Positions 6,435 through 44,684 of a stretch of 64,000 bases of DNA are shown here, one piece after another. How positions within the stretch are numbered: the first letter of the stretch is position 1; each line of letters begins with the position of its first letter. The notes beneath the pieces were generated by a model. The model was given only the letters and a program-made list of their open reading frames with translations, did not search any database and was not told the origin of the DNA. The position numbers and the translations under genes are program-made. The stretch is from a phage. Where the stretch lies: NCBI GenBank assembly GCA_011911785.1, contig GCA_011911785.1_4084.1; one strand, written 5' to 3'.

Positions 6435-6435
6435 T

Positions 6436-29752: not shown

Positions 29753-29780
29753 TTGACATTACCGCAAAAAGGCGTAGAAT
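29753..29780 (+). promoter_or_regulatory. Early promoter TTGACA-16-TAGAAT with ~120-nt leader
   Basis: Leader is a diverged copy of the 27808-type element. Confidence 0.5.
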
Positions 29781-29903
29781 GTATTACATCAAGACGGGGA
29801 ACACTAAGTAGACCGCCAGTAAGTCGAACGAAAAACTGGACACGTCGAGAAAACTTTGATACACTAACTAACGTAAACTAAACTTTAATTGAGGAATTAC
29901 ATA

Positions 29904-30386
29904 ATGGCTAACGTAAAATCATTCATCAAAGCACTGGTAGCAAATGAAACTAACGTAGCGGCAGAGATCCTGGCCGAACTGGATAGCGATACCATGAAAG
30001 CAGTACGCAACAATTTTAACATTGCGTACAGCGAAGCGAAAGAACTGCAAGCTAATAAAGCGGCAGCACTTGAAGCTGAGAAGGCAGCACGCGAAGCTGA
30101 ATTGCAGAAAACGATTGAAGATATTAACGCCGCCGTCGCTGGGCTTGATCTGGAAGTAGTTACCGAAATGGCACGTAAAGCCCTGGCAGCGAAATACGGG
30201 GAAGACAAGCCAGAAGTAAAAGCTAAAAAATGGATTCAGGAACGCGTGACGGTAGTACTGGATAACGGCGAGGAATACACTGTACCAGTACGCGGTAACT
30301 GCATTGCGGTAGTACTGGATGCTATCAAAGAAAGCGGATTGACTCGCGAGGAATGGATCGAAGCTCATCGCAAAGTTGAAGCATAA
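29904..30386 (+). CDS. Hypothetical Ala/Lys/Glu-rich protein (160 aa)
   Basis: RBS GAGGA; track start 29889 rejected. Confidence 0.55.
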   Translation: MANVKSFIKALVANETNVAAEILAELDSDTMKAVRNNFNIAYSEAKELQANKAAALEAEKAAREAELQKTIEDINAAVAGLDLEVVTEMARKALAAKYGEDKPEVKAKKWIQERVTVVLDNGEEYTVPVRGNCIAVVLDAIKESGLTREEWIEAHRKVEA

Positions 30387-30407
30387 CAATTAAAGTACTG
30401 AATCACT

Positions 30408-30435
30408 AGCCCACCTTAAACAGTGGGCTTTTTTG
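30408..30435 (+). terminator. Intrinsic terminator AGCCCAC..GTGGGCT + T-run
   Basis: Read directly. Confidence 0.7.
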
Positions 30436-30661
30436 TGTCTATCGTTTACCAGGCCAGCAGCACCGCCTAGAATCGATTCTAACGCATTAAACTGATTATC
30501 TGATGCATCGCCCTAGCTGGTGGCGTTAAGGTCGTTAGAATGCGATTGAGGACGTTTAAAGTATTTTGCAAAAAGTAATAAAAAGTACTTGCACGATTAA
30601 GAGATTAGCGTATAATTAATTTCATCAAGGCGAGACACCTTAACTAACTGAGGATATAAAG

Positions 30662-30814
30662 ATGAATACTTATGAACTGGATTGTTTCACTTTACAAGTA
30701 ATGTCAGTATGCAGCAAGAAAGATTGGTCATCAAAGGAATTTAAAGCAGTTATCGCGTGTGCAAAACACGGCAAGACTATCAATGAAACGGCATCAATCA
30801 TTGATAAACTTTAA
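30662..30814 (+). CDS. Hypothetical small protein (50 aa), not in ORF track
   Basis: Promoter CTTGCA-17-TATAAT upstream; RBS GAGGA; hand-translated. Confidence 0.4.
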   Translation: MNTYELDCFTLQVMSVCSKKDWSSKEFKAVIACAKHGKTINETASIIDKL

Positions 30815-30885
30815 AAAATAGTTTGACAATAGTTTTAAGTACTGACATAATACATACATCAACTACTGAATAGGAATTAAAAAAA

Positions 30886-31113
30886 ATGGCTATCGTAATC
30901 ACTCGCGTAACTGGTACTACTGGCAATTCTTCTACTGTTGCTGTAATTACTAACAAGAAAGGTGCGGAACTACATTTTGCAATGTATAACTGGTCAGTTG
31001 ATGAGTTTGGTCAGTACGCTAGTGTAGAATACATTGAAACCTATCAAGTGCCGTCGATTAGTTTAACTGATTTGGGCGTTGAGCGTATCCTTTGCCTGGA
31101 TGAATTAAATTAA
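30886..31113 (+). CDS. Hypothetical small early protein (75 aa)
   Basis: Promoter TTGACA-17-CATAAT upstream. Confidence 0.55.
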   Translation: MAIVITRVTGTTGNSSTVAVITNKKGAELHFAMYNWSVDEFGQYASVEYIETYQVPSISLTDLGVERILCLDELN

Positions 31114-31198
31114 AAAAGTACTTGCAAAGTAAAACGAATAAAGTATAATACATTACATCAAGGGGAGAAATGGTTCTCCCCACTAAGAGGAAACGAAA

Positions 31199-31342
31199 AT
31201 GAAAACTTGTCAATGTGGTAAAAAATCTATTACTGGTTTAAAGCGGGGCGTTGCTCTTTGTCAGTATCACTATAATGCTCAAGTATGGGGTAAAGAGTGG
31301 GCCGACCAGGTTGAAGCAGTAAAGAAAGCAAAAAGTAAGTAA
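31199..31342 (+). CDS. Small Cys-rich protein (47 aa), not in ORF track
   Basis: Promoter + GGGGAGAA hairpin + RBS GAGGAAA; CQCG..CQYH. Confidence 0.4.
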   Translation: MKTCQCGKKSITGLKRGVALCQYHYNAQVWGKEWADQVEAVKKAKSK

Positions 31343-31433
31343 AATTATTATCACAGTACTATTGACATAGATTGATAGTACTGGCATAATAGATTTTATC
31401 AAGACAACACATATTAATTTAAGGAATACTAAA

Positions 31434-31646
31434 ATGGCTATCATTATTAAAAACAAAGTTAACAAGACTATCGTTAAACTGGCAGAAGTGAAAGAAGGTT
31501 ATAAAGTATCTTGGGAGGGTTTTTATAGGATGTTCACAGATATAGACGATGCAATCAAGTACTACACTGATACGGTTGCTGACTTTGTTCGTTCTGATGT
31601 AGTAATGGCAGTTGCACAACATAAAGCATCGAAAGAAAGTAAGTAA
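31434..31646 (+). CDS. Hypothetical small early protein (70 aa)
   Basis: Upstream cassette 31345-31433 duplicated at 31647-31737. Confidence 0.55.
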   Translation: MAIIIKNKVNKTIVKLAEVKEGYKVSWEGFYRMFTDIDDAIKYYTDTVADFVRSDVVMAVAQHKASKESK

Positions 31647-31737
31647 AAATATTATCACAGTACTATTGACATAGTTTGATAGTACTGGCATAATAGATTT
31701 TATCAAGACAACACATATTAATTTAAGGAATACTAAA

Positions 31738-32061
31738 ATGGCTAAAACTATCATTAACACCGTATCCCTGGCTGCAATCCGTGCAATCAATGTTGACGGT
31801 AAACGTTGGACTGATTCATATGGCAATACTTATCATTCTTGTCATGTAAGCGTTGAACTGGATAACGGTGTGAATGATCTGGCGGTTGAATCATTTACTT
31901 ATGGCTATGAAGATGCATATCAACAAACGGCGTTATCTCTCTTAAAGGAATCAGTAGATGGGCTTGATACTGTTGAAACCTCCCTTAATCGTTTGTGCAA
32001 TGATTTGTCTATCCCGTTGCATTGTACTGTACAGAATGTTAAACGCAAAAAAGATCTTTAA
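31738..32061 (+). CDS. Hypothetical small early protein (107 aa); paralog of 37670-37993
   Basis: Shared RWTDSxGNTYHSC..FTYGY. Confidence 0.55.
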   Translation: MAKTIINTVSLAAIRAINVDGKRWTDSYGNTYHSCHVSVELDNGVNDLAVESFTYGYEDAYQQTALSLLKESVDGLDTVETSLNRLCNDLSIPLHCTVQNVKRKKDL

Positions 32062-32141
32062 TTAGCTTTACTTTATGCAGATACTTTGATATAGTGTCTG
32101 CATAGGGGAAAGAAATTAAATTAACTTAAGAGGATAGTATA

Positions 32142-32411
32142 ATGAAAAATATCAGTACTTTAATCGATGCAGGTACGCATGTTCGTCGGTCTATGGTTGC
32201 AACCAGTACTACAAAACAAGTACCAAGCGGTTATCTTGTATTTGTACACGATGGAAAACTCCTGGAACGTTCAATCAATTTTGATGTTAAGAACAATTGT
32301 CGTTTTATTATCTTTAAGCGTGAACAATATAAAATTGATTTGCCAGCGAAGCCCATTAGCGGGGCGTACAACGTGCAATCATTGTTTGAGCGTCAACCAT
32401 ACACCTATTAA
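32142..32411 (+). CDS. Hypothetical small early protein (89 aa)
   Basis: RBS AAGAGGA; inverted repeat TGCAGATACT/AGTGTCTGCA upstream. Confidence 0.5.
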   Translation: MKNISTLIDAGTHVRRSMVATSTTKQVPSGYLVFVHDGKLLERSINFDVKNNCRFIIFKREQYKIDLPAKPISGAYNVQSLFERQPYTY

Positions 32412-32462
32412 TCAAAACATCGTTAGCGGTCGATTTAGGCCGCTAATATTGAGGATAATACC

Positions 32463-32633
32463 ATGAACGTTAATCAAGTACTGAATGAAGTTGAAAGCAT
32501 CATTAAACCTATGCAGCGTAGCGATGCTATTCCTACACCGGAAGAATGCAGACTATACGAACAATACAGCGTAGAACAAGCCCAGGCGATGGCCCGTATT
32601 CGTCCGGTTGCTAGTACTGATAAGGCGGTGTAA
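32463..32633 (+). CDS. Hypothetical small protein (56 aa), not in ORF track
   Basis: RBS GAGGA; coupled to next gene (TAATATG). Confidence 0.4.
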   Translation: MNVNQVLNEVESIIKPMQRSDAIPTPEECRLYEQYSVEQAQAMARIRPVASTDKAV

Positions 32634-32634
32634 T

Positions 32635-32844
32635 ATGCTTACTGTACAGGATAAGATCGACATCTTAAAGGTTAATATGTATGTGATTGATGCCGTACCT
32701 GGTAAAGTATTTGCATACGATGATTCTAATCGTAGTCCTTTCTATTGTAGTCATGTAGTTGGATACGTGCCGTTGGCGTATGTTATCGAAAGAGTGGTTG
32801 ATGCAGCATACAATCATTTTTTAGAAAATAATACTTGCAATTAG
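32635..32844 (+). CDS. Hypothetical small early protein (69 aa)
   Basis: Track start 32608 rejected. Confidence 0.5.
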   Translation: MLTVQDKIDILKVNMYVIDAVPGKVFAYDDSNRSPFYCSHVVGYVPLAYVIERVVDAAYNHFLENNTCN

Positions 32845-32913
32845 TTTTCAGTACTGTATAATTGTTTACATAGAGGGGGGAAATGGTTCTCCCCTGATAC
32901 TAGGAGAATCAAA

Positions 32914-33066
32914 ATGAAACAATACAACGCTCGGTTTGATGTTACTATCGGCAACGGCAAAGGTCAATTTTCTTTCAGTACTCGTCGCAGTTATACAGAA
33001 AACTTCCTGCGTAATTGTGCATTGACCGCCGCACAAATTAAACATTACTTCCAGGCTAAAAAATGA
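32914..33066 (+). CDS. Hypothetical small protein (50 aa), not in ORF track
   Basis: Promoter + hairpin + RBS AGGAG. Confidence 0.4.
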   Translation: MKQYNARFDVTIGNGKGQFSFSTRRSYTENFLRNCALTAAQIKHYFQAKK

Positions 33067-33152
33067 AATCATTGGCTTATTACAGTTCGGCGGTGATCGG
33101 TGCATTGATCGCGGCATTGTTAGTAACCTATCTATTCTTTGTGGTGATTTAA
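33063..33152 (+). CDS. Tiny hydrophobic peptide (29 aa)
   Basis: ATGA overlap with upstream stop; single TM-like segment. Confidence 0.25.
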   Translation: MKSLAYYSSAVIGALIAALLVTYLFFVVI

Positions 33153-33290
33153 ATGAATCCTAACGGTTTAATTTACAGTGCTCCTAAAACGAAAGCAGAT
33201 AAAGCGAAAGCACGTAAAGCGAAAGTAAAGGAGTACATCAAGCAAGGCATGACGCGAAAAGCAGCAGTACTAAAAGCTAAAAATAAATGA
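33153..33290 (+). CDS. Small Lys-rich basic protein (45 aa)
   Basis: TAAATG overlap; hand-translated. Confidence 0.3.
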   Translation: MNPNGLIYSAPKTKADKAKARKAKVKEYIKQGMTRKAAVLKAKNK

Positions 33291-33295
33291 AAAAA

Positions 33296-33329
33296 GTGGT
33301 TGACTTCGGTCAGCCATTTTGCTATTATA
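33296..33329 (+). promoter_or_regulatory. Type-A terminator/promoter cassette
   Basis: GTGGTTGACTTCGGTCAGCCA hairpin; -10 TATTAT; 13-nt motif follows at 33353. Confidence 0.55.
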
Positions 33330-33409
33330 TATTCATTGAGAGATAGCTCACTAGCCCACCGGGTGCGGAAGTGTAAATAAAATATATCAATCTAATAAGG
33401 AGTACTACA

Positions 33410-33592
33410 ATGTTTAAACCAATCGAACTAGCGGCATCACATATCATCGGTAAACCTGCCGTTATCATACGCCAGGAAGACGTAAACCTATGGATCATCT
33501 ATGTAGACATGAAAGAGATTGAGCGTCACGATGATTTCAAATCAGCGTCAATTGCGTATGATATGGCGTTATGTGAGTATCAAAGAGATTAA
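33410..33592 (+). CDS. Hypothetical small early protein (60 aa)
   Basis: RBS AAGGAG. Confidence 0.5.
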   Translation: MFKPIELAASHIIGKPAVIIRQEDVNLWIIYVDMKEIERHDDFKSASIAYDMALCEYQRD

Positions 33593-33691
33593 AAGTATTT
33601 TGCAAAAAGTACTTGCATTGTACTTAGAATCAAGTATAATGTTTTACATAGCAAGGGGAAACGGTTTCCCCTGGTAATAAGGAAACGAATC

Positions 33692-34033
33692 ATGACTATC
33701 TCAATTGCTCAATCTAACTTTGAAAACGAAATCATCGCCCAGGCACTGCGTTTAAATGATGGTCGGGCCGAAATTAATTACGGTTTCAATTCAGGCGGTT
33801 GTGAAAACTATCAGTACTTTGTAACGGCTGATGGCGGTGTCCTGGGAATCAATACAGTTATTGTAAACATTCAGAAAATTAATTTCAATGATCCAGACGA
33901 TAGCCAGTTTTACATTGTCGGCGTAGACGTGAACTATGAGGATGACTCACTAACTGATGATTGCACTGGTGAGAAGTTAGAAAGTGCATACGGTGAAGAT
34001 GATTATCAGTCCGGTCCAGAAGATTTCGAATAA
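33692..34033 (+). CDS. Hypothetical acidic protein (113 aa)
   Basis: Promoter cassette; RBS AAGGAAA. Confidence 0.55.
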   Translation: MTISIAQSNFENEIIAQALRLNDGRAEINYGFNSGGCENYQYFVTADGGVLGINTVIVNIQKINFNDPDDSQFYIVGVDVNYEDDSLTDDCTGEKLESAYGEDDYQSGPEDFE

Positions 34034-34128
34034 TATTAAAAAATAGTTTGACAATAGATTATAGTACTGTATAATAGTTTACATCAAGGGGAGAATAGTT
34101 CTCCCCACTAACAGAGAGAGAAAACAAA

Positions 34129-34341
34129 ATGGCTAATATCCGGTCGAAATTGAAAAATGCAAAACAAGTTTTATTTTCAGACCATGAATACTTTAATAAA
34201 GATATTACAGGAGTTACAAGTATCAAGGAAGTAAAAGAAAAAACTGGCGTTTTGTGTGATGTGCGATTGGTTGGAACATTTGGGAATAACGTGCTATATC
34301 GATGCGGTGATTATAACTTTACATTAACCATTATCGATTAA
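34129..34341 (+). CDS. Hypothetical small early protein (70 aa)
   Basis: Promoter TTGACA..TGTATAAT + hairpin upstream. Confidence 0.55.
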   Translation: MANIRSKLKNAKQVLFSDHEYFNKDITGVTSIKEVKEKTGVLCDVRLVGTFGNNVLYRCGDYNFTLTIID

Positions 34342-34423
34342 AAATATTATCACAGTACTATTGACAAAGATTGATAGTACTGGCATAATAGATTTTATCA
34401 ACTACACTACTAAGGAATTAAAA

Positions 34424-34603
34424 ATGGCTATCATCGCAAAAACTGAAATCGTTGGTCTGGATTCTATCATCATGACGTTTGAAGATCAAAAAGGGATGTA
34501 TGTAGTTTCCTATGGTGATTATGTTCGGGAGTATGAAACGGTAGACGAAGCCTTTGAAAGTTACATTCGCCAGGTGAATAAAGCATACGACGACTACCGC
34601 TAA
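34424..34603 (+). CDS. Hypothetical small early protein (59 aa)
   Basis: Upstream cassette shared with 31434 and 31738; track start 34361 rejected. Confidence 0.5.
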   Translation: MAIIAKTEIVGLDSIIMTFEDQKGMYVVSYGDYVREYETVDEAFESYIRQVNKAYDDYR

Positions 34604-34702
34604 AATATATTACCAGTACTATTAAAGATATTGACATAGTTTGATAGTACTGTATAATAAGTTTTATCAACAGTAGTTAACTTAACCTAAGAGAGAAAGA
34701 AA

Positions 34703-34846
34703 ATGATCGCACTGGATTCATTCATCGAAGCAGTACTGGCAAAAACTGGCGAAGATCTGACCGCAGAACAATACGCAATGATCGAACAATGCCAGCAAGA
34801 CGGTAAATCGGTGAAAGATACTGTTAAGATTATCCGCAAGATGTAA
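34703..34846 (+). CDS. Hypothetical small protein (47 aa), not in ORF track
   Basis: Promoter + RBS AGAGAGAAAG; terminator follows. Confidence 0.4.
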   Translation: MIALDSFIEAVLAKTGEDLTAEQYAMIEQCQQDGKSVKDTVKIIRKM

Positions 34847-34852
34847 GATTAT

Positions 34853-34882
34853 AGCCCACTGGTTAACGCTGGTGGGCTTTTT
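34853..34882 (+). terminator. Intrinsic terminator AGCCCAC..GTGGGCT + TTTT
   Basis: Read directly. Confidence 0.65.
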
Positions 34883-35024
34883 AGTATATACCTATCCGAT
34901 AGTACTACAAAATAGATTAGCTCGTTAGAATGCGTTTGAGAGCGTTTAAATAAGTACTAAAAAGTAATTGACAGTACTGAAAGATAGTATATAATATTTT
35001 ATATCTTAACTGAGGATAGAAATC

Positions 35025-35381
35025 ATGGGAATACAACACATCACGCGTACTACTGACAATGGTGAGATCACTGGTTATCAAGTACAGGGAAAAGCGTCAC
35101 AATTGCAGTACTGGTTTGAAAAACGTGGATTGATTGCACCGGATCTTGATTATGACCGTGTAGCGTTTATTGATTCTCTTTATGTTGATTCTGCTAGTCG
35201 GGGTAATGGTGAAGGCACGGAATTGATGAACGCCTTTATTGATGCCGCCGATGATTCAGATTGTATCATTTTAGAATGCGATACGGGAGAAGATAACGCC
35301 TTTAATCTTAAAGAATGGTACGAAGGTTTCGGATTCGAAGTACTGATCGATAGTGAATATCCTATCATGATTTTATCGTAG
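35025..35381 (+). CDS. Putative GNAT-family N-acetyltransferase (118 aa)
   Basis: Motif A-like VDSASRGNGEGTELM and motif B-like NAFNLKEWYEGFGF. Confidence 0.5.
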   Translation: MGIQHITRTTDNGEITGYQVQGKASQLQYWFEKRGLIAPDLDYDRVAFIDSLYVDSASRGNGEGTELMNAFIDAADDSDCIILECDTGEDNAFNLKEWYEGFGFEVLIDSEYPIMILS

Positions 35382-35469
35382 TACTAAAAAGTAATTGACA
35401 GTACTGATAGATAGTGTATAATGTTTTACATGAAGGGGAAACATCTTCCCCTACTAAGAGGAAATGAAA

Positions 35470-35658
35470 ATGGAAAACTTATCAAGTATTTTAGTACAAG
35501 ATGAATACGGCAATCCAGGAAGTGCTATCATTGTTCGGGGTAATAAGGCAACGTTTGTTATTGCTGGTGGACCTGTACAGCGTAGCATTAAAAACAATGC
35601 CGTTACTATTAATAATGTACGCTATCGCTTAGATAAAGAATTGATTCACAAACTGTAA
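35470..35658 (+). CDS. Hypothetical small early protein (62 aa)
   Basis: RBS AAGAGGA 7 nt upstream; promoter + hairpin. Confidence 0.5.
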   Translation: MENLSSILVQDEYGNPGSAIIVRGNKATFVIAGGPVQRSIKNNAVTINNVRYRLDKELIHKL

Positions 35659-35685
35659 TATTAATTTAATAGAGGATAACAATAA

Positions 35686-36009
35686 ATGTACATTCATACT
35701 ACTATCACAAAGGAAGTCCGTTGCCAGTTCGAAAGTATTCCGGGCGTATGTTTCATCACTGGTACGTTTTCCCCTGGTGATCGTGATAATCCAGTACTGT
35801 TACAATTACGCCATCCATCATGGGATAAAGCATTTGATCTACCGTTGAATGAATTCGCAACTACTGCTGAAAAGTACATTAAAAATATTCGCGAGAATGA
35901 TCGACTATTCATTAATGCTTTTAGTGATTCCGCGTTAAGCGAGATCCACGGCGTATTGGTTGCAATCATGGAATCTATGCAGAAAACTAAATTCAAACAA
36001 GGTGAATAA
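35686..36009 (+). CDS. Hypothetical small early protein (107 aa)
   Basis: RBS AGAGGA. Confidence 0.55.
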   Translation: MYIHTTITKEVRCQFESIPGVCFITGTFSPGDRDNPVLLQLRHPSWDKAFDLPLNEFATTAEKYIKNIRENDRLFINAFSDSALSEIHGVLVAIMESMQKTKFKQGE

Positions 36010-36093
36010 AAACTATTGACAATGCAATCCAGTACTGTATAATAAGTTACATGAAGGGGAGAAATGATTCTCCCCAGTACTGAGGAAAGAAAA

Positions 36094-36306
36094 ATGCAAG
36101 GTCAACTAATCGTTCGTAAATGGTCTGATACTAACGAAAAACCGTGGGATGTACAATACATCGCCCCCAATGGTGAATCCAGATATCAACCAGGTGTAAC
36201 GCATAGTACTGAGCAATTCGCCGCCGCACACCGTGAACGCCTGTTACAATCCATGCAGCAAGGCTTCGGTGAAAAATTCATCCAAGATCATTGGCTGAAA
36301 GATTAA
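36094..36306 (+). CDS. Hypothetical small early protein (70 aa)
   Basis: Track start 36064 lies in the leader hairpin; RBS GAGGAAAG. Confidence 0.55.
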   Translation: MQGQLIVRKWSDTNEKPWDVQYIAPNGESRYQPGVTHSTEQFAAAHRERLLQSMQQGFGEKFIQDHWLKD

Positions 36307-36393
36307 AAAAGTACTTGTGAAGTACTTAGAATCAAGTATAATGTTTTACATAGAGAGGGGAATAGTTCCCCTCCTAACAAAAAGGAAAGTAAC

Positions 36394-36567
36394 ATGATCC
36401 AAGTAGAATTGACAGTACTGAAAGATCTGTTTTATCGGATGGGTACTACTGGCGAATATCCGAAAGGTGATACCGCAAAACTTTACGTATCGCTGGATGT
36501 ATGGCAACGCGAACAATTAGCAACGGCCTGGCGTAAAGGCAAAGCAGATCGCGAGGTGCAAGCATGA
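36394..36567 (+). CDS. Hypothetical small protein (57 aa), not in ORF track
   Basis: Promoter + hairpin + RBS AAAGGAAAG. Confidence 0.4.
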   Translation: MIQVELTVLKDLFYRMGTTGEYPKGDTAKLYVSLDVWQREQLATAWRKGKADREVQA

Positions 36568-36713
36568 AAGAATACTTATTCGAAGTTACATTTTTGGGGC
36601 AAGGTATGCACCAACTAGTAAGATCCAGCGGTTATAGTCTTAACCAGGCATGGAATAACTTAAAGAAAATGTACCCTAACGCTATCACATATCGCAACCC
36701 AAAAGAAGTTTAA
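36564..36713 (+). CDS. Hypothetical small protein (49 aa), not in ORF track
   Basis: ATGA overlap with upstream gene. Confidence 0.35.
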   Translation: MKEYLFEVTFLGQGMHQLVRSSGYSLNQAWNNLKKMYPNAITYRNPKEV

Positions 36714-36727
36714 AAATAATTGAAAAA

Positions 36728-36760
36728 GGGATTGACTCCGGTCAGTCCCTTTGCTATTAT
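36728..36760 (+). promoter_or_regulatory. Type-A terminator/promoter cassette
   Basis: GGGATTGACTCCGGTCAGTCCC hairpin; -10 TATTAT; motif GCCCACAGGGTGC at 36781. Confidence 0.6.
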
Positions 36761-36894
36761 ATACGCATAGAAACAAATCAGCCCACAGGGTGCATAAATG
36801 TATCTATTATATGCTGGTGGACGTATTATCTAGTACTGAAAACTATTATAAAAAAGTACTTGCATTGTACTTAGAATCAAGTATAATGTTTTAC

Positions 36895-36970
36895 ATCAGG
36901 ACGGGGAATGAAACAAGTAACCCCGTTAAGTAGTCCAGGAGTAAGACATAAGAAAACCTCCCCTGATAAA
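36895..36970 (+). other. Conserved ~76-nt structured leader element (copy 2)
   Basis: About 85% identical to 27808-27883; lies between promoter at 36858-36887 and promoter at 36976. Confidence 0.35.
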
Positions 36971-36975
36971 ATAGT

Positions 36976-37003
36976 TTGACAATAGAAAGTAAACGAGTAT
37001 AAT
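36976..37003 (+). promoter_or_regulatory. Early promoter TTGACA-16-TATAAT
   Basis: Read directly. Confidence 0.6.
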
Positions 37004-37035
37004 ACTTACATCAACCACTGATAAGGAAACATAAA

Positions 37036-37311
37036 ATGCGGATTCTACTGACAGCTAACGAAATCGAACAAGTACTGACTACTAACCTGCAAGACTGGAA
37101 ACGTGAAGCAGATATCCAGGCGGTTCAATGGCTTAACGATAAGTTAACGCCGGATGACTTAAGCAAGATTGTAGATCCTCAATTCTATGAAGATATTCAC
37201 GACACCGCGTTAAGCGTCGAGGATGTACTTGATAAGCACTACATTGATATTGATTTGCAGGTTTACGGTCGTAAAAACTTTATCACTATTCACGACATTT
37301 ACAATAATTAA
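37036..37311 (+). CDS. Hypothetical small early protein (91 aa)
   Basis: RBS AAGGAAA. Confidence 0.55.
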   Translation: MRILLTANEIEQVLTTNLQDWKREADIQAVQWLNDKLTPDDLSKIVDPQFYEDIHDTALSVEDVLDKHYIDIDLQVYGRKNFITIHDIYNN

Positions 37312-37314
37312 GTA

Positions 37315-37342
37315 TTGACAAAGTATCTTAGTACTGTATAAT
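37315..37342 (+). promoter_or_regulatory. Early promoter TTGACA-16-TGTATAAT; 5' stem-loop at 37357-37375; cassette duplicated at 37573-37640
   Basis: Read directly. Confidence 0.6.
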
Positions 37343-37398
37343 AGTTTACATCAAGTGAGGGGAATGGTTCCCCTCCTAACTAAAAGAGAGAAATAAAA

Positions 37399-37581
37399 AT
37401 GGCTAAGTGCACTATCTGTAAGAAAGAAATCGTATTAGTTCCAAGTGCCCGTGAACGTGCCGCTCGGTTCGGTGGCAAAGCGTCAGACTATACAAAAATG
37501 TTTACTACCCATGCAGATTGCCAGGTAGCAAAACGTTCACAAGAAAGCGTAGAATTAATGCGTAAACTTTCCAGAAAATAA
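37399..37581 (+). CDS. Small Cys-containing protein (60 aa)
   Basis: CTICKK..HADC; start ATGGCT. Confidence 0.5.
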   Translation: MAKCTICKKEIVLVPSARERAARFGGKASDYTKMFTTHADCQVAKRSQESVELMRKLSRK

Positions 37582-37669
37582 GTATTGACAAAGTATCTTA
37601 GTACTGTATAATAGTTTACATCGAGTGAGGGGAAACGGTTCCCCTCCTAACAAAGAGAGAGAAATAAAA

Positions 37670-37993
37670 ATGGCTATGATCCTCACCCAGAAAGTAGAAC
37701 TGAAAATTGTAACCTCCTTTGACATTAAAGTTAATCGGTGGACTGATTCACACGGCAATACTTACCACTCTTGCTACGTGTCTGCTTTGATTGGTGATCG
37801 CTGGGAGGATTTAGGACATGAAACCTTTACTTACGGTTACGGCACACAAGGCGAATACACAGGCTTGGAGATCATTAAAGAAACCGTTATAGGTTTCAAC
37901 CCGAAAGAAAAAGTTATTCATCAAATAGAAAAAGAGATCAACAAAGAAATAACAGTTCGATACTACGATGTAAAACGTAAGAAAGACATGTAA
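37670..37993 (+). CDS. Hypothetical small early protein (107 aa); paralog of 31738-32061
   Basis: Track start 37625 rejected. Confidence 0.55.
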   Translation: MAMILTQKVELKIVTSFDIKVNRWTDSHGNTYHSCYVSALIGDRWEDLGHETFTYGYGTQGEYTGLEIIKETVIGFNPKEKVIHQIEKEINKEITVRYYDVKRKKDM

Positions 37994-38015
37994 TAGAATC
38001 CATTTAAAGTACTAT

Positions 38016-38044
38016 TTGACATTGCCCAGATAGTACTTTATAAT
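38016..38044 (+). promoter_or_regulatory. Early promoter TTGACA-17-TATAAT
   Basis: Degenerate copy precedes paralog gene at 26940. Confidence 0.55.
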
Positions 38045-38092
38045 AGACTCTAGCTTGTAGTACTAATTAACTTAACTAATAGGATGTATACC

Positions 38093-38488
38093 ATGATTAC
38101 TAAATTCTACGCTACCCGTGAAGCTGCCCGTATTGTTGCACGCGAGGAAGGAGCAGCATTTAAAGACATGGGCACGACCGCACCGAAAGGCCAACGCTGG
38201 GCCGTACAGTTCAAAGAAATCTCTGATATTGTGCATTCACCTGAGCCAGTACTAACAGCAGCAGAACTAAAACGAGCGGATATGCTGGCGGCAGTACTTA
38301 ACGCACAAGATGAGTTTATCGCTGGTTCTGATATCAAAGTACAGGTAAATGCTAATGCATGGACTCACGCGGATCACCTGGCTAACCTGAAGCGTCCAAG
38401 TGAACTGGTTCGCAACCAAAAAGAGATCCGTCATGATCGTAAGGGTAATCGTGTAACAGTATACAGTAAACGCCGCCAGGTTATCTAA
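38093..38488 (+). CDS. Hypothetical early protein (131 aa); paralog of 26940-27206
   Basis: RBS AGGA 8 nt upstream. Confidence 0.55.
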   Translation: MITKFYATREAARIVAREEGAAFKDMGTTAPKGQRWAVQFKEISDIVHSPEPVLTAAELKRADMLAAVLNAQDEFIAGSDIKVQVNANAWTHADHLANLKRPSELVRNQKEIRHDRKGNRVTVYSKRRQVI

Positions 38489-38510
38489 TAACTTGCAGTA
38501 CTAACAACAC

Positions 38511-38535
38511 GGCGGGATCAGTTCCCGCCTTTTTT
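38511..38535 (+). terminator. Intrinsic terminator GGCGGGA-tcagt-TCCCGCC + TTTTTT
   Basis: Read directly. Confidence 0.8.
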
Positions 38536-38550
38536 ATAGGATAAACTAAA

Positions 38551-38805
38551 ATGATTAAGGTTCAACTATCAAAAGATAATATCTTGCGGGTACACTATAA
38601 AGCACCACAGAGAATCATCACAAAGGCCGTACAGCTTGCTAATGAGTTTATTAATGGTAATCTATTGCCCAGGAAGTTAAGCAACGGCAAACTGCGTGTA
38701 ATCGATGTAGACACTAACAACAGAATAGTAATCGAGAATACAGGAAAGATAAACCTATATGAACACCAACAATATAATAAGAAAATAAAACTAATATCAC
38801 GTTGA
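38551..38805 (+). CDS. Hypothetical small early protein (84 aa)
   Basis: RBS AGGA. Confidence 0.5.
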   Translation: MIKVQLSKDNILRVHYKAPQRIITKAVQLANEFINGNLLPRKLSNGKLRVIDVDTNNRIVIENTGKINLYEHQQYNKKIKLISR

Positions 38806-38858
38806 CAGTACTCAATTGTTTTAGTACTATGTATCTATACCAACACGGGAGAAACAAA

Positions 38859-39077
38859 ATGAAATTATCTAAAATCGAAAAGAAAACTATTGATGAAGCA
38901 GTTAAGCACGGTTATACCTTTCGTAATGATTCACATTTTACCAATTTTCAACAAGGGTATCGTACTATTAAAAAACTTATTGACAAAGGTTTATTAGTTG
39001 AAGTCAATAACGGTAACGGTATCGAGTATCAACCAACACAAGACGCATTATCTTTAAAGAAATATGCAATTATCTAA
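38859..39077 (+). CDS. Hypothetical small early protein (72 aa)
   Basis: Promoter TTGACA-17-TACTAT duplicated at 39080; track start 38802 rejected. Confidence 0.5.
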   Translation: MKLSKIEKKTIDEAVKHGYTFRNDSHFTNFQQGYRTIKKLIDKGLLVEVNNGNGIEYQPTQDALSLKKYAII

Positions 39078-39142
39078 TTGACAGTACTCAATTGTTTTAG
39101 TACTATATGTACATACCAACACGGAATAACTGGAGAAACAAA

Positions 39143-39370
39143 ATGATTAATATCTTAGAACGCATCAAAGAAACTACTACGCTGGTGGATCTACTCAATG
39201 TACTGACTTTTAAAGTAACTCGGTTTAGTACTCCTGAATTTATCAACCTCATTGATAGTAAAGGTGAATACCGCATCACTATTGAAAATGGTCGTGCTAA
39301 TGTATTCAGTACTAAATCAGGTAAAACCGCAATTCATTCAGTAATTGCAAATAAAACTGTTGCAATCTAA
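39143..39370 (+). CDS. Hypothetical small early protein (75 aa)
   Basis: RBS GGAG; track start 39107 rejected. Confidence 0.5.
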   Translation: MINILERIKETTTLVDLLNVLTFKVTRFSTPEFINLIDSKGEYRITIENGRANVFSTKSGKTAIHSVIANKTVAI

Positions 39371-39439
39371 TTAGTACTAACATATAATAGTCACATCAAG
39401 GCAGGGAATACCTCCCTGCTATCTTAAAGAGTAAATGCA

Positions 39440-40024
39440 ATGCGTAATTATACTAAATTCATCCGTACACTGGCAGAAATGGAAACTAATAAAGAGATCC
39501 TTACAGCTTGTCGGTTGGCTGGTCTGGAGATCATCGGGGCCGGATCATCCCGTATCGTATTCGCTTTAAATGATCGGTTAGTGATTAAGGTCGCTAATTG
39601 TGACGCTGGCGTAGAACAAAATGAAACAGAATGTAAGGTATGGAATTTTTTAGATTATGACCGCCCTCACCTTAAACAGTACTTTGCTAAGGTGCATATG
39701 CATTTAAGCGATCCTGATAATATGTTTATTGTTATGGATCGTTTGAGTACTGCAAGCAAAGGCAGTGTAAAGCACGTTAACGCTTGCAATGAATTAAAGT
39801 ACAATGTCAAACGTAACACTATTGAACGCCAACACCATTTCGCTGATGCACTACAACACGTTGATGATACCTTATCAACACTAACGATAAGAGATATCAG
39901 AAAGCAGAACATAGGCCAAGATCGCAATGGCCTGATTAAAGTACTTGATTACGGTTTAACCCGCAATATCTGGAATCAGTACTATAAACAACGCGACGTA
40001 AAAGCCGTAACTATAACACGATAA
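39440..40024 (+). CDS. Putative protein kinase-like protein (194 aa)
   Basis: Gly-loop IGAGSSRIV, Lys in VIKV, catalytic-loop-like RDIRKQN, DYG in place of DFG. Confidence 0.5.
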   Translation: MRNYTKFIRTLAEMETNKEILTACRLAGLEIIGAGSSRIVFALNDRLVIKVANCDAGVEQNETECKVWNFLDYDRPHLKQYFAKVHMHLSDPDNMFIVMDRLSTASKGSVKHVNACNELKYNVKRNTIERQHHFADALQHVDDTLSTLTIRDIRKQNIGQDRNGLIKVLDYGLTRNIWNQYYKQRDVKAVTITR

Positions 40025-40038
40025 AAAAGATTAAAAAA

Positions 40039-40071
40039 GGGATTGACTCCAGTCAGTCCCTTTGCTATTAT
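40039..40071 (+). promoter_or_regulatory. Type-A terminator/promoter cassette
   Basis: GGGATTGACTCCAGTCAGTCCC hairpin; -10 TATTAT; motif variant at 40097. Confidence 0.6.
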
Positions 40072-40248
40072 ATAGTCATTGAGAGATAACTCACTGACCC
40101 ATAGGGTGCATAAGTGTATCTATAATATAAGTATTGTCAGTACTGAAAACTATTTTTAAAAAGTACTTGCATTGTACTTAGATTCAAGTATAATGTTTTA
40201 CATAGAGAGGGGGAAATAGTTCTCCCTCAAAGAATAAGGAATAAAATC

Positions 40249-40470
40249 ATGACTACAATGACTTGCATTTACGCTTCCAATCTTCTGAATGATGCGGCCT
40301 TTAATGTTGATTCAGAATATCAATGTTATCGGGATGAAAATAAAAAAGTTTTTGTAGTTGATAATAATGGTTTCCATATTGAATTACAATCCGGCTTCAC
40401 TGGTGTTGATGGTAAATCAGTATGGGGCGTTCAGGATGATAAAGGCACATATCATTTTAAACGTAATTAA
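40249..40470 (+). CDS. Hypothetical small early protein (73 aa)
   Basis: Promoter + hairpin + RBS AAGGAAT. Confidence 0.55.
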   Translation: MTTMTCIYASNLLNDAAFNVDSEYQCYRDENKKVFVVDNNGFHIELQSGFTGVDGKSVWGVQDDKGTYHFKRN

Positions 40471-40553
40471 GTATTGACAAAGTATATCAGTACTGTATAA
40501 TAGTTTACATCAAGGGGAGAATAGTTCTCCCCGATACTAAAAGGAATAAAATC

Positions 40554-40961
40554 ATGACTACTACTAATCAAGCTCGGTCCATCACCAACGATAAAAATCA
40601 TGCTGCAATGGTCGCTGGTTACATTGAAGCTATGCAATTCAGTACTGTACACAATGAGAACGGCGACTACCTGGAAGATTATGAATTATCAGAGCAAGCC
40701 CATCAAGCGGCAGTGATTGCATGTTCTCGTTTCCTTGAGAAGTTTAGTAATGAAATGGAAGCAGTACAAAAACACCATAATCCTGATTATACTTATAGTC
40801 ATGCAGGTCATGATCTCTTTCTTACCCGCGAAGGTCACGGTACTGGCTTTTGGGATCGTGATATCGGTCACTATGACGATGTATTCACTAAGTACTGCGA
40901 AGAAATCAACGTTTGCGATCCCTATGTAGGCGATGATAATCTAATCTATATGGGCGAATAA
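40554..40961 (+). CDS. Hypothetical His-rich early protein (135 aa)
   Basis: HAGHDLFLTREGHGTGFWDRDIGH; promoter cassette. Confidence 0.55.
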   Translation: MTTTNQARSITNDKNHAAMVAGYIEAMQFSTVHNENGDYLEDYELSEQAHQAAVIACSRFLEKFSNEMEAVQKHHNPDYTYSHAGHDLFLTREGHGTGFWDRDIGHYDDVFTKYCEEINVCDPYVGDDNLIYMGE

Positions 40962-41048
40962 AAGTATTTGACAAAGCATATCAGTACTGTATAATAGTTT
41001 ACATCAAGGGGAGAATAGTTCTCCCCACTACTAAAAGGAAACAAAATT

Positions 41049-41321
41049 ATGTCTAGCTACTCCGCTACTATGATCATCAAAGATATGAACGGTAATCCTA
41101 CTTCCGCTGGTGGATCATTTGGAAACATTAACTTAGATGGTCGGTTATCAATGGAATCAGCCATCAATGCAGCGAAAGAAGTTTTTAAGAATGAATGTAC
41201 TGTAAGCAAGCTGGATTATATGGGCTTCGCTATCGAGAAAACTAAACGTTTTGTGGACTACAAAAATCCACTGATGATTGATACTAACCTGAAAGCTAAC
41301 GAAGTGGAATACTTATTATGA
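41049..41321 (+). CDS. Hypothetical small early protein (90 aa)
   Basis: Promoter cassette; RBS AAGGAAA. Confidence 0.55.
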   Translation: MSSYSATMIIKDMNGNPTSAGGSFGNINLDGRLSMESAINAAKEVFKNECTVSKLDYMGFAIEKTKRFVDYKNPLMIDTNLKANEVEYLL

Positions 41322-41509
41322 CAGTTGATGAAGTTAAAAAAGTACTGGCAGTACTACGCTATCATAATCATTGTAAGGTTAAGAATGATCCTGATTATGT
41401 TGATTCATCCCTGGAGGAAGACACCTTAAACGCGATAAGCCATATGCAAACATTAGCAAAGCGTATGACCGAAAAGAATAGGCCGGACTATATCGGAAAT
41501 AAAATTTAA
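41318..41509 (+). CDS. Hypothetical small early protein (63 aa)
   Basis: ATGA overlap. Confidence 0.5.
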   Translation: MTVDEVKKVLAVLRYHNHCKVKNDPDYVDSSLEEDTLNAISHMQTLAKRMTEKNRPDYIGNKI

Positions 41510-41596
41510 AAAGTACTTGCATTGTAGTTAGATTAACGTATAATGTTTTATATCGAGAGGGGGAAATGGTTTCCCCTCAAGTCCAGGAGATACACC

Positions 41597-41863
41597 ATGA
41601 ACACTATCGAAATCACTATCAATGCTCACGTATACGACAACGTAGTACTGCAAACTACTATGACCGCTAACGATACCAGTACTTTGCGGAATACTGTTAT
41701 AAGTGCTGTATGTGCCGCTATCGGTGATGTATCCCTGGAAAACGCAGAACACATCAATAACGGTTTCACTATGTGCAAACGTGATAACGCAAAACATATC
41801 ATCGTAGAAGGTTACGGCGGTGTAGAATATAATCTTTATATGAAAAAAGTACTTGCATCGTAA
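41597..41863 (+). CDS. Hypothetical small early protein (88 aa)
   Basis: Track start 41543 lies in promoter/leader; RBS AGGAG. Confidence 0.55.
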   Translation: MNTIEITINAHVYDNVVLQTTMTANDTSTLRNTVISAVCAAIGDVSLENAEHINNGFTMCKRDNAKHIIVEGYGGVEYNLYMKKVLAS

Positions 41864-41928
41864 GTAAAACAAAGTATAATGTTTTGCATAGGGGGAGATA
41901 TCCTCCCCCACTAATAAGGAGTACTACG

Positions 41929-42153
41929 ATGGCTAATCATGATGAACTGATTCGGGAAGTAGCTAACCTGGCGGCAGAAAAGAAATCATTTGATTCTATC
42001 TATAACACCGCTCACCGTGATTCAGTACTGGCATGTAATCAGGATCAAAAAGATGAACTGATCGCAACCTATCATGAAGCGTGGAAGTATTACCGTCAAT
42101 GGGAGAAAGAAGAAAAAGCATCAACCATAAGAGGATTAAATAATCTAGTATAA
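41929..42153 (+). CDS. Hypothetical small early protein (74 aa)
   Basis: Track start 41884 rejected; RBS AAGGAG. Confidence 0.55.
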   Translation: MANHDELIREVANLAAEKKSFDSIYNTAHRDSVLACNQDQKDELIATYHEAWKYYRQWEKEEKASTIRGLNNLV

Positions 42154-42205
42154 CAATAAAAGGGGATGATAATATCCCCTTAATAATTTCTATAATAGGT
42201 TAACA

Positions 42206-42472
42206 ATGAAAAAGAAAACAACATATCGCTATAATAAAAATTATCAATCCGTTGTATTAGATCACTCTATGCTCCCGCTCGTTGTCCCTGCCGTTGGTGT
42301 AGTCTATCAATCCATATACTGGTCAAGGAAACAACAAAAGTACTTAAAAGGCCCAATAGCACGCTATGAGGGTAATGGTGTATGGTCCGATCCGTTACAT
42401 CCAATCACTACGCGTTATATTGAATATTTTCCTTATTGTGACTACATTGAAATACATCCTAAATTTAATTGA
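42206..42472 (+). CDS. Hypothetical small protein (88 aa); paralog of 42553-42810
   Basis: Shared ..GNG(V/E)W(S/F)DP.. Confidence 0.5.
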   Translation: MKKKTTYRYNKNYQSVVLDHSMLPLVVPAVGVVYQSIYWSRKQQKYLKGPIARYEGNGVWSDPLHPITTRYIEYFPYCDYIEIHPKFN

Positions 42473-42552
42473 TAGTATTGACAGTACTAACTGATAGTGT
42501 ATAATGTTTTGCATAGGGGGAATACTCCCCCAATATTAAAAGGGGAAACATC

Positions 42553-42810
42553 ATGGAACAATTCACACAATATCGGGTAAATCCTCAAGCTATGGCCTAC
42601 GTAGAAGACCATAAAACGTTACCAGTACTGCAACCAGTTAAAGGCCGTATCTATCGTGGCCTTGCATGGAATACGGCCCAGGATGGATATAAAACCGTTG
42701 CCGTGGGGATGTATTGCGGTAATGGTGAATGGTTTGATCCAAATAATCCGGTAGCTATTGACAGTACTGAAAAAATGAAATGGGCCGACTATATCGAGGA
42801 TATCTCATAA
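42553..42810 (+). CDS. Hypothetical small protein (85 aa); paralog of 42206-42472
   Basis: Promoter + hairpin; RBS AAGGGGAAA. Confidence 0.55.
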   Translation: MEQFTQYRVNPQAMAYVEDHKTLPVLQPVKGRIYRGLAWNTAQDGYKTVAVGMYCGNGEWFDPNNPVAIDSTEKMKWADYIEDIS

Positions 42811-42899
42811 AACTATTTGACAGTACTATCATATAGTGTATAATGTTTTACATAGAGCGGGGGAATAGTTCTCCCGCCAATAGTTTGGAGTAAAACATT

Positions 42900-43100
42900 A
42901 TGTCAATCGCTAACGAAATGATCGCAGTACTGAAAGAAGCTAAAGCCAACCTGATCGACGTAAAGATCCAGGAACTACAATCCGGCTTAATCGGCTGTAC
43001 TTGTACCGCTGGTGGGGCGACAGATTATCGTGAATTCGAATCACTCGAATCGATGGTTCGGTATCTTACAATGATCGTGGAAGATTGGAAGATCATCTAA
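42900..43100 (+). CDS. Hypothetical small early protein (66 aa)
   Basis: Promoter + hairpin. Confidence 0.5.
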   Translation: MSIANEMIAVLKEAKANLIDVKIQELQSGLIGCTCTAGGATDYREFESLESMVRYLTMIVEDWKII

Positions 43101-43118
43101 CAAAAAAGAATAAAAAAA

Positions 43119-43151
43119 GGGATTGACTCCGGTCAGTCCCTTTGCTATTAT
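43119..43151 (+). promoter_or_regulatory. Type-A terminator/promoter cassette
   Basis: GGGATTGACTCCGGTCAGTCCC; -10 TATTAT; motif GCCCACAGGGTGC at 43172. Confidence 0.6.
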
Positions 43152-43347
43152 ATACGCATAGACAAAAACTAGCCCACAGGGTGCATAAGTGTATCCAAAA
43201 TATATAGTTAATAACGGTGAGTAACTATCTGCTGGTGGAGTGAAAACTATTAATAAAAAAAGTATTGACAAAGTATATCAGTACTGCAATAATGTATCTC
43301 GTAGGGCGGCAATGGTGCGACGGCCCACAAAGTTAGGAGATTCACAA

Positions 43348-43680
43348 ATGAGTACTTCAATCGCCATCGTTAATGCTTTCATCCGTACCAATGTTTCTTC
43401 TGTATTCATCGACGGACTGGATCGGGAAGTAGAATACTCAATCATTATCGCACAGACTGCAAACGGTGCTCGGTATATCCTCAATGATAGCGAAGCAAAT
43501 CACTACTACTACACTAAAGCTACTGGCTTTAAACGCATCGATGCGGACGTAGTATACGCTAAGATGAATAAGCTGGTAGACAAGATTAACGCTAAAGGTA
43601 CTATCGATTTACAGTACTGGACCGAAACCGATCCAGAATATGGATCTCACCGCTACCTGAATCCAGGTATTAAAATGTAA
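43348..43680 (+). CDS. Hypothetical early protein (110 aa)
   Basis: RBS AGGAGA; track start 43240 rejected. Confidence 0.55.
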   Translation: MSTSIAIVNAFIRTNVSSVFIDGLDREVEYSIIIAQTANGARYILNDSEANHYYYTKATGFKRIDADVVYAKMNKLVDKINAKGTIDLQYWTETDPEYGSHRYLNPGIKM

Positions 43681-43769
43681 AAAGTACTTGCATAGTACTT
43701 AGTAAAGTGTATAATGTTTTACATAGAGAGGGGGAAATGGTTCTCCCTCCTAAATTAAGGAGTACTACC

Positions 43770-44171
43770 ATGACTTTCTCAATCACTTCCTACGCTGACG
43801 TTTTAGTACTGGCTCGGACTTTTGGTAAAGCTGGCATGGAGTATGCTGTAAACAATGGTCACATGCACCCTGAATATTGCCGCATCATTGGAAGCTGTAA
43901 ACGTTGGGCAACTAACAATACGATTGAACTGGAAAACTTCAATGATGGTAACAATGAATATACTGTTGATGCAGTATTTGAAGCCGTTGATCTCGGCGGT
44001 ATCTATAACACTAACCTGAATGATGTGCGTATCGTTCGCACGGGGTTCGGTGCTTATGATGTATCCATCCGTGAAGCTATGGACACGGGATACATTAGTA
44101 AGGACTTGCTCGCTTACATCATGCAGCAGACTAAGGAGCGTAACGAAGCACGCACTATCTTAGGACTGTAA
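43770..44171 (+). CDS. Hypothetical early protein (133 aa)
   Basis: Track start 43707 rejected; RBS AAGGAG. Confidence 0.55.
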   Translation: MTFSITSYADVLVLARTFGKAGMEYAVNNGHMHPEYCRIIGSCKRWATNNTIELENFNDGNNEYTVDAVFEAVDLGGIYNTNLNDVRIVRTGFGAYDVSIREAMDTGYISKDLLAYIMQQTKERNEARTILGL

Positions 44172-44239
44172 GCATTACACATCACCAAACATCATAGGCC
44201 GCTCTCTAGCGGCCTTAACTATATCAGGAGTACACACAC

Positions 44240-44449
44240 ATGATCTATACAGTATACAGCGTTCTAGGTACTATTGCAGGCGTACATGATAACGTCGATG
44301 ATGCTATGCGTACAGTACTGCAACAGGTTCCACTAAAGCCTAAGACTATTAAGCAGATGACAGCACGACTAACCAGGGCAAAGGCTGGCGGTGAAGTCTG
44401 GCAGGACTACGCGGATACGCAGATTATCATTGCAGTAAGTAATGATTAA
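44240..44449 (+). CDS. Hypothetical small protein (69 aa)
   Basis: RBS CAGGAG. Confidence 0.5.
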   Translation: MIYTVYSVLGTIAGVHDNVDDAMRTVLQQVPLKPKTIKQMTARLTRAKAGGEVWQDYADTQIIIAVSND

Positions 44450-44493
44450 TGAATTAAATGATTCAGTACTAAAACTATTAGTCAGAAAATAAT

Positions 44494-44527
44494 CGGTGCA
44501 TTTTAAAAATGCATCGTTTTTTATTTT
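44494..44527 (+). terminator. Intrinsic terminator TGCATTTT-a-AAAATGCA + T-run
   Basis: Read directly; closes the early small-gene region. Confidence 0.65.
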
Positions 44528-44684
44528 AACCAGTACACTATAACGTATGAAATAGTTTCGACCTGTGATTATATTCTTAGGCAACTAGGGGCAGGTAATG
44601 CTTAGCTGCGTGTATAGGGGTTCATAGGTGGGACAAAATTGTTTCGTATGCTACAATCATAACAAATAACATAAGGAGAAACCA

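Follow-up and report, generated by a model that had tools for sequence, protein, structure and literature searches.

A compact protein-kinase-like protein encoded in the probable terminal repeat of a Rak2-like jumbo phage

The phage contig GCA_011911785.1_4084.1 (NCBI GenBank assembly GCA_011911785.1) was analysed as a single 64,000-nt window, in which positions 39440 to 40024 of the + strand encode a 194-aa protein bearing the motifs of a protein kinase. [quoted passage not shown] Its parts differ in strength. A PKL fold is very nearly certain, and the residues retained make an active phosphotransferase likely. Protein substrates are modestly favoured by analogy with another phage kinase, while a role in host takeover or against host defences, which rests on the same analogy, is put forward tentatively.

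The position, strand and sequence of the 194-aa open reading frame (ORF) are as the first-pass annotation of the window had given them. Orthologues in the phages Turkey3, Sharanji and CRJP21 are annotated in the identical 585-nt frame, and the ratio of non-synonymous to synonymous substitution rates (dN/dS, Nei-Gojobori) among four orthologues is 0.04-0.08; 39440-40024 is therefore a real and strongly constrained gene. A ribosome-binding site (RBS), AAAGAG (39426-39431), lies 8 nt 5' of its ATG. No paralogue of the gene was found in the window by tblastn. The gene and the elements of its product are as follows.

39440..40024, + strand: coding sequence, stop codon included, of the 194-aa compact protein-kinase-like protein (ORF list, orthologues, dN/dS, phrog_4301, AlphaFold2 (AF2) model)
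39440..39517, + strand: N-terminal two-helix extension, residues 1-26, before the N-lobe (AF2 helices 4-12 and 17-26; present throughout the family alignments)
39533..39559, + strand: glycine-rich loop IGAGSSRIV, residues 32-40 (beta1-beta2 turn of the AF2 model; signature GxGSSRxV)
39581..39592, + strand: VIKV, residues 48-51, on beta3 and carrying K50, the lysine that anchors ATP (model strand 47-52)
39608..39631, + strand: GVEQNETE, start of the alphaC-like helix (helix 55-70 in the AF2 model)
39890..39910, + strand: catalytic-loop equivalent RDIRKQN, residues 151-157, with D152 as catalytic and N157 as metal-binding residue (in register with HRDLKxxN of MKK4, PKC and FGFR)
39947..39955, + strand: DYG, residues 170-172, equivalent of the Mg-binding DFG (aligned with the DFG of solved kinases)
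39962..40021, + strand: C-terminal tail, one helix (175-182) with Y182 (model; same endpoint in homologues and in relatives with tandem domains)

The kinase motifs to which the first-pass annotation had drawn attention occur in the order it described, and the catalytic residues are kept in homologues down to ~20% identity. Conservation, which it had proposed as a check, was scored over 214 domains aligned to the family hidden Markov model and thinned to 205 at <80% identity; the catalytic residues are retained across these 205 domains, to which all the percentages below refer. In the glycine-rich loop G33 is conserved at 86%, G35 at 97%, S36 at 91% and R38 at 99.5%, so that the canonical GxGxxG loop is present as GxGSSR, with the invariant R38 replacing the third glycine. 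K50 is 100% conserved, and phmmer pairs it with the AIK lysine of PKC theta. The alphaC-like helix is equally constrained (G57 98%, Q60 99%, N61 98%, E64 100%); E64 is the probable lysine-pairing glutamate, which would form a K50-E64 salt bridge. D170 and G172 are 99-100% conserved, with position 171 occupied by Tyr in 74% of domains and by Phe in 11%, and Y182 in the C-terminal tail is kept in 80%. The glycine-rich loop, VIKV and DYG are thus true family signatures. Two motifs mark the family out: GxGSSRxV, in which an invariant Arg stands where canonical kinases have their third Gly, and, in helix C, GxxQNxxE.

The fourth motif, RDIRKQN, stands in part. D152 is conserved family-wide (97%), as is G159 (98%), whereas N157 is fixed in the close subfamily only: across the family position 157 is His in 37% of domains, Asn in 27%, Ser in 20% and Gln in 10%. 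R151 and K155 vary within the genus, and the resemblance they lend to a canonical catalytic loop is coincidental. Same-genus orthologues read TIIDISKTNIG here, with R151, R154 and Q156 changed and D152 and N157 spared. Position 151 is Gly in 52% of domains and rarely Arg, and the catalytic loop of the family carries no HRD histidine.

Structure prediction, the other check proposed for the kinase assignment, gave a confident kinase-like model. AF2 run with a shallow 14-sequence alignment was uninformative (pLDDT 48), while a 53-sequence alignment yielded a model with pLDDT 93.7 and pTM 0.90. After the two N-terminal helices, the model consists of beta1 (30-35), beta2 (38-42), beta3 (47-52), the helix C equivalent (55-70), beta5 (96-100), helix D (108-120), helix E (130-145), the catalytic loop, two short strands, DYG and a final helix (175-182). 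The bilobal PKL layout is present, with a beta-sheet and helix C in the N-lobe, and helices D and E with the catalytic and Mg-binding loops in the C-lobe. Foldseek matches in the PDB are nearly all PKL folds (APH(2''), MEK1, NEK7, Lpg2603, RIO2), and the superposable part of the fold comprises ~125 residues. The chain stops 22 residues past DYG, an endpoint matched in homologues and in the tandem copies described below, and its size is about two thirds that of a canonical kinase domain. Many phage proteins of 150-250 aa in BFVD have the same compact fold.

Sequence profiles point the same way, in that matches of family profiles to PDB sequences were almost all to kinases. When the family profile was compared with PDB sequences, 508 matched at E<1; the best 60 of the 508 are all kinases, the top match being MKK4 (1.2e-4), and the glycine-rich loop, the lysine, DxxxxN and DFG lie in register in the alignments to kinases. 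Among 51 diverse family members, the commonest sub-threshold Pfam match was Pkinase, in nine (best 26.4 bits); ABC1 was matched in five and APH in none. NCBIfam yielded no useful match.

The protein differs from each kinase group that it resembles. Eukaryotic-like Ser/Thr/Tyr kinases (PF00069/PF07714; for example MKK4, PKC theta and PknB) have domains of ~260 aa; the 194-aa protein has no activation segment, no APE motif and no helices F-I, no HRD His/Arg and no lysine two residues after the catalytic aspartate (D+2), and carries Arg for the third Gly. Minimal or atypical PKL proteins, a group to which HopBF1-type effector kinases also belong, include RIO2, TkArkI (a tRNA 2'-kinase of 216 aa) and the Legionella protein Lpg2603, which, unlike the 194-aa protein, keep extra helices after DFG. 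They show no sequence-level kinship with it (no Pfam RIO1 or other match), and their activities are different ones, namely those of an ATPase, an RNA kinase and an IP6-activated kinase. In APH(2'')-Id/IVa the C-terminal part forms a large helical subdomain for substrate binding, which is missing here; only ~125 of the 194 residues align with them, at 19% identity.

A functional parallel is T7 gp0.7 (T7K; Pfam PF27024), a phage kinase described as acting early and disarming defences (PMC13645617). The first-pass annotation had cited T7 gp0.7 while claiming no sequence relationship, and that caution was justified. T7K and Sharanji gp144 match phrog_2828/15752/18305, whereas the 194-aa protein matches phrog_4301 only. 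Against a T7K alignment, hhalign gave a probability of 62% (E 7e-5, 146 columns) with a shallow T7K profile, whose listed relatives are at least 69% identical; single-sequence comparisons were uninformative (probability 1% for T7 gp0.7 and 2.6% for Sharanji gp144). The hhalign result fits distant common ancestry inside the PKL superfamily and not membership of the T7K family.

The two kinds of protein are nevertheless alike in several respects. Both are phage-encoded and probably early, both are compact kinase domains ending shortly past the DFG-equivalent Asp, and the glycine-rich loop, VIK lysine, DxxxxN and this Asp are in register. Autographiviridae kinases of the T7K family also occur among the BFVD structural neighbours of the 194-aa protein (TM-score to the query, TMq, ~0.55; E~1e-5). 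On the other side, a DPV motif in place of DFG has been described for T7K (PMC13645617): T7K reads ITDPV and Sharanji gp144 ITDPL, in contrast to DYG in the 194-aa protein and D-[YF]-G in its family. The invariant GxGSSR and QNxxE of phrog_4301 are missing from T7K, and the 194-aa protein lacks a C-terminal host shut-off (SO)/DNA-binding domain, a domain that has also been lost from jumbo-phage homologues of T7K (PMC13645617).

Both kinases are found in Sharanji. WNN14351.1 is the Sharanji orthologue of the 39440-40024 ORF, while WNN14432.1 is a true T7K homologue of 224 aa (BLASTP 4e-8, ITDPLS, phrog_15752) encoded at OR545507.1 66,182-66,856 (- strand; L011:26183-26857). Coordinate mapping places the T7K-like gene locus outside the window, ~5 kb beyond its left edge. 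Related phages thus encode two different compact kinases.

The 194-aa protein matches phrog_4301 (PHROGs v4, 'unknown function') over residues 3-187 with E=2.2e-41, and the distant relatives P0127, P0178, P0085, P0016, P0043 and P0064 match the same PHROG at 1e-15 to 1e-24. A word-indexed search recovered 13 homologues only; when 1.8 billion cluster representatives were searched exhaustively with a profile, 2,068 proteins matched at E<=1e-3, 242 of them at E<=1e-10. Most of these relatives are 180-260 aa long and end soon after D-[YF]-G. Among close relatives, the nucleotide sequence is 90-94% identical to 36 records of jumbo coliphages and Salmonella phages of the PBECO4/121Q group (Asteriusvirus, ~350 kb). 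By tblastn, at identities as low as 27%, the protein is found in 58 phage records, all of Rak2-like jumbo phages (hosts Escherichia, Klebsiella, Salmonella, Yersinia, Erwinia and Xanthomonas). A narrow-alignment search for the close subfamily covered 185,579 representative genomes of bacteria and archaea, with no match, and IMG/VR, where 121Q alone was matched; the absence from cellular genomes holds for this close subfamily only.

Several metagenomic relatives (P0021, P0023, P0027, P0029-P0032 and P0037) contain two to four complete tandem kinase-like domains of ~190 aa in one polypeptide. Every copy retains R38, K50, Q60, N61, E64, D152, D170 and G172, and because all tandem copies keep the catalytic residues, the ~190-aa unit is shown to be a complete autonomous domain. 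P0118 (3,248 aa) carries two copies (residues ~653-1041) within a protein bearing a PhageMin_Tail (tape-measure-type) domain, a fusion which suggests that in some phages the kinase is delivered together with the DNA. The P0127 locus (L009, a 60.8-kb contig from Logan accession SRR8203764) looks like a counter-defence island, with two NADAR genes and genes for an Acb1-like/2H phosphoesterase, a cREC protein and an acetyltransferase around it. Another family member sits between T4 gp13-like neck and sheath genes. These contexts, which are anecdotal and not statistical, would suit proteins whose action on the host begins as the DNA enters or shortly afterwards.

The kinase-like gene lies in a part of the window that corresponds to a direct terminal repeat (DTR) in related phages. 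This region and the elements flanking the gene are listed below.

24490..44600 (approximate, by homology), no strand: equivalent of a ~20 kb DTR (CRJP21 ends; fENko-Kae01 orthologue; two copies per record)
39360..39388, + strand: predicted sigma-70-type promoter of the kinase-like gene, TTGCAA (39360-39365), 17-nt spacer, TATAAT (39383-39388) (promoter scan)
39393..39431, + strand: 5' leader with ACATCAAGG (39393), an 8-bp GC stem-loop (39400-39420, -14 kcal/mol) and the RBS AAAGAG (39426-39431) (ViennaRNA fold)
40036..40071, + strand: 12-bp hairpin (-17.6 kcal/mol) just past the stop codon of the kinase-like gene, holding the -35 element of the next promoter (TTGACT-17-TATTAT) (terminator/promoter scan, fold)

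The ends of the CRJP21 genome are an exact 20,152-bp repeat with a copy of the gene in each. This repeat maps to ~24.5-44.6 kb of the window, which places the kinase-like gene ~15 kb from the left terminus. In the Klebsiella phage fENko-Kae01 the orthologue lies within a 19,736-bp DTR defined by PhageTerm, in which all genes read inward. Two copies of the gene occur per record where an assembly includes both repeats; a reading of these copies as paralogues was rejected, as they represent the repeat at either terminus. In the window the repeat seems to have been collapsed during assembly, in which case the virion would carry each gene of the span twice.

The + strand of the window contains 16 perfect TTGACA-N16/17-TATAAT promoters, all but one of which (15/16) fall in the DTR span. 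These promoters belong to a repeated cassette of a promoter, the sequence ACATCAAGG, a GC-rich stem-loop in the 5' untranslated region, an RBS and the ATG of a short ORF; all 19 cassettes lie within 24.8-43.7 kb. The arrangement resembles the promoter-early-stem-loop modules of T4-type phages. The cassette of the kinase-like gene is a slightly degenerate version of those of its early neighbours. For CBB, a Rak2-like phage whose terminal repeat measures 22 kb, an 'early region' has been inferred from RpoD-type promoters over short ORFs (PMC5259590). The 'early' label that the first-pass annotation gave the protein gains indirect support from its position in the DTR and from its own sigma-70 promoter and stem-loop cassette, and this anatomy makes early expression, dependent on host RNA polymerase, quite probable.

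Approximately 16 ORFs of the DTR are common to the window (24-45 kb) and fENko-Kae01 (1-19,736), with 30-70% identity and in shuffled order, as would be expected if early genes are rearranged cassette by cassette. No gene was co-conserved as a partner of the kinase-like gene in the comparison with the fENko-Kae01 DTR; its immediate neighbours are not co-conserved, and no partner gene is therefore indicated.

The hairpin downstream of the kinase-like gene is one of three near-identical copies of AAAGGGATTGACTCCrGTCAGTCCCTTT (36725-36752, 40036-40063 and 43116-43143). They are not classical terminators, since they have no T-run. Separately, two perfect-consensus sigma-70 promoters on the - strand, at 27726 and 29245, are opposed to the otherwise unidirectional DTR region.

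On this basis we propose the following course of events. The DTR holds ~50 small genes, all reading inward from the genome end, each of which would be under a host sigma-70 promoter and stem-loop cassette. Because of the DTR location and these cassettes, the kinase-like protein would most likely be synthesised by unmodified host RNA polymerase in the first minutes of infection. The product would be a minimal PKL enzyme with a full ATP-binding N-lobe (GxGSSR, K50, E64) and a C-lobe trimmed to helices D and E, the catalytic loop and DYG. Lacking an activation segment and belonging to a family that is not 'RD', it would be expected to be constitutively active from the moment of synthesis. Its most probable activity would be ATP-dependent phosphorylation of Ser/Thr (possibly Tyr) residues in host or host-defence proteins, with protein acceptors suggested by the T7K analogy and by profiles that favour protein kinases over APH. 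Such phosphorylation would help in takeover or counter-defence, alongside the unrelated T7K-like kinase that these phages also encode.

Several observations weigh against this proposal. The Pfam matches of the protein to Pkinase and PK_Tyr_Ser-Thr (E=1e-3, 18.9 bits) lie under the gathering thresholds of 31.7 (PF00069) and 23.1 (PF07714). The AF2 model is without the activation segment, APE motif and helices F-I with which canonical kinases bind protein substrates. The catalytic-loop lysine at D+2 is missing, and the metal-binding Asn is replaced by His, Ser or Gln in most of the wider family. As for expression, the gene's own promoter matches the consensus at just 10 of 12 positions, and the fENko-Kae01 orthologue is not flagged among the proteins detected by liquid chromatography-tandem mass spectrometry (LC-MS/MS). 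The Ser/Thr/Tyr fraction of DTR proteins is 0.170 vs 0.187 in the region rightward, with no clear depletion of the kind reported for phages carrying T7K. Finally, no biochemical, phosphoproteomic or transcriptomic data on any phrog_4301 member were found in the literature searched.

The strongest alternative, though an unlikely one, is a PKL kinase with a non-protein acceptor. The acceptor could be a small molecule or nucleotide (a second messenger of immunity, say, or a compound resembling an antibiotic); it could also be RNA/tRNA phosphorylated at the 2'-OH as by archaeal ArkI, and the enzyme would then neutralise a defence signal or protect or alter tRNA. A broader speculation, to which we give still less weight, is that phrog_4301 is a large class of minimal phage kinases (>2,000 clusters at 50% identity) in which GxGSSR and QNxxE serve a non-canonical acceptor or mechanism: RNA/tRNA, an immune signalling nucleotide, or a promiscuous anti-defence kinase. 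Some phages would deliver the kinase ready-made, as tandem arrays or tape-measure-type fusions, and Rak2-like jumbo phages would express theirs immediately from both genome ends.

Two further alternatives are improbable, and to a similar degree. The protein might bind ATP without acting as a phosphotransferase in vivo, as an ATPase or switch (Bud32, RIO, UbiB/COQ8), as a pseudokinase serving as a scaffold to sequester a host protein, or as a PKL fold with another chemistry, such as AMPylation (SelO) or glutamylation (SidJ). The retention of D152 and of D170 (~100%) with the Lys-Glu pair is, however, the pattern of an active transferase and not of a pseudokinase, every tandem copy has the full residue set, and there is no sign of a flipped nucleotide site as in SelO or SidJ. 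Equally, an active protein kinase might be aimed mainly at the phage's own proteins, such as early regulators or injected proteins, and so time the phage programme. In favour of such targets, the substrates of T7K include proteins of the phage besides those of the host (PMC13645617), the gene is one of the ~16 in the DTR that Asteriusvirus has in common with a Klebsiella jumbo phage, and relatives occur beside neck and sheath genes and within a tape-measure-type protein; however, no neighbour is co-conserved with the kinase, the DTR order is shuffled, and nothing points to a phage substrate. That a small protein unrelated to kinases resembles them in these motifs by chance, a view to which the sub-threshold Pfam matches and the low pLDDT of the shallow-alignment model might lend colour, is effectively refuted by the confident second AF2 model with its almost exclusively PKL fold matches, by residue conservation in the 205 domains, and by the PDB profile matches given above.

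The kinase-like nature of the protein is already on record at annotation level only. Orthologues are annotated as '(putative) protein kinase' in K64-1, Muenster, SE_PL and fENko-Kae01, as 'PknA' in Turkey3 and as 'PRP4' in fEgEco12; the UniProt entry from PBECO4 reads 'Protein kinase domain-containing protein', and the Sharanji paper also remarks on the kinase nature. The literature searched gives no account of the family's size, signature motifs, truncated architecture or tandem and tape-measure-type fusions, nor of its terminal-repeat and early-cassette placement or its separation from T7K.

Recent work has shown that kinases of phages can counter host defences broadly, the examples being T7K and a related Salmonella-phage kinase cited in the same work (PMC13645617). 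The family described here is a second family of phage mini-kinases, apart from T7K in PHROGs and much larger in metagenomes. If the protein is active, Rak2-like jumbo phages would deploy two mini-kinases, one of them from the terminal repeat and so presumably among the first DNA expressed. It is also an example of kinase-domain trimming, to a core of ~170 residues without activation loop or helices F-I, that is of interest for the structural study of kinases and as a scaffold of small size for engineering. In annotation, the label kinase-like could be extended to phrog_4301 and to thousands of 'hypothetical proteins'.

Two other features of the window lie outside the DTR span. Between 6,465 and 20,481 the - strand encodes ~11 paralogous RCC1-like/Kelch beta-propeller proteins of 300-980 aa (phrog_4219, 'regulator of chromosome condensation'), and their transcription leads away from the terminal repeat. 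On the + strand, 1220-2347 encodes an HNH-type endonuclease of 375 aa, which matches phrog_681 at E=2.5e-47 and, weakly, a treble-clef zinc finger; it is possibly a homing endonuclease.

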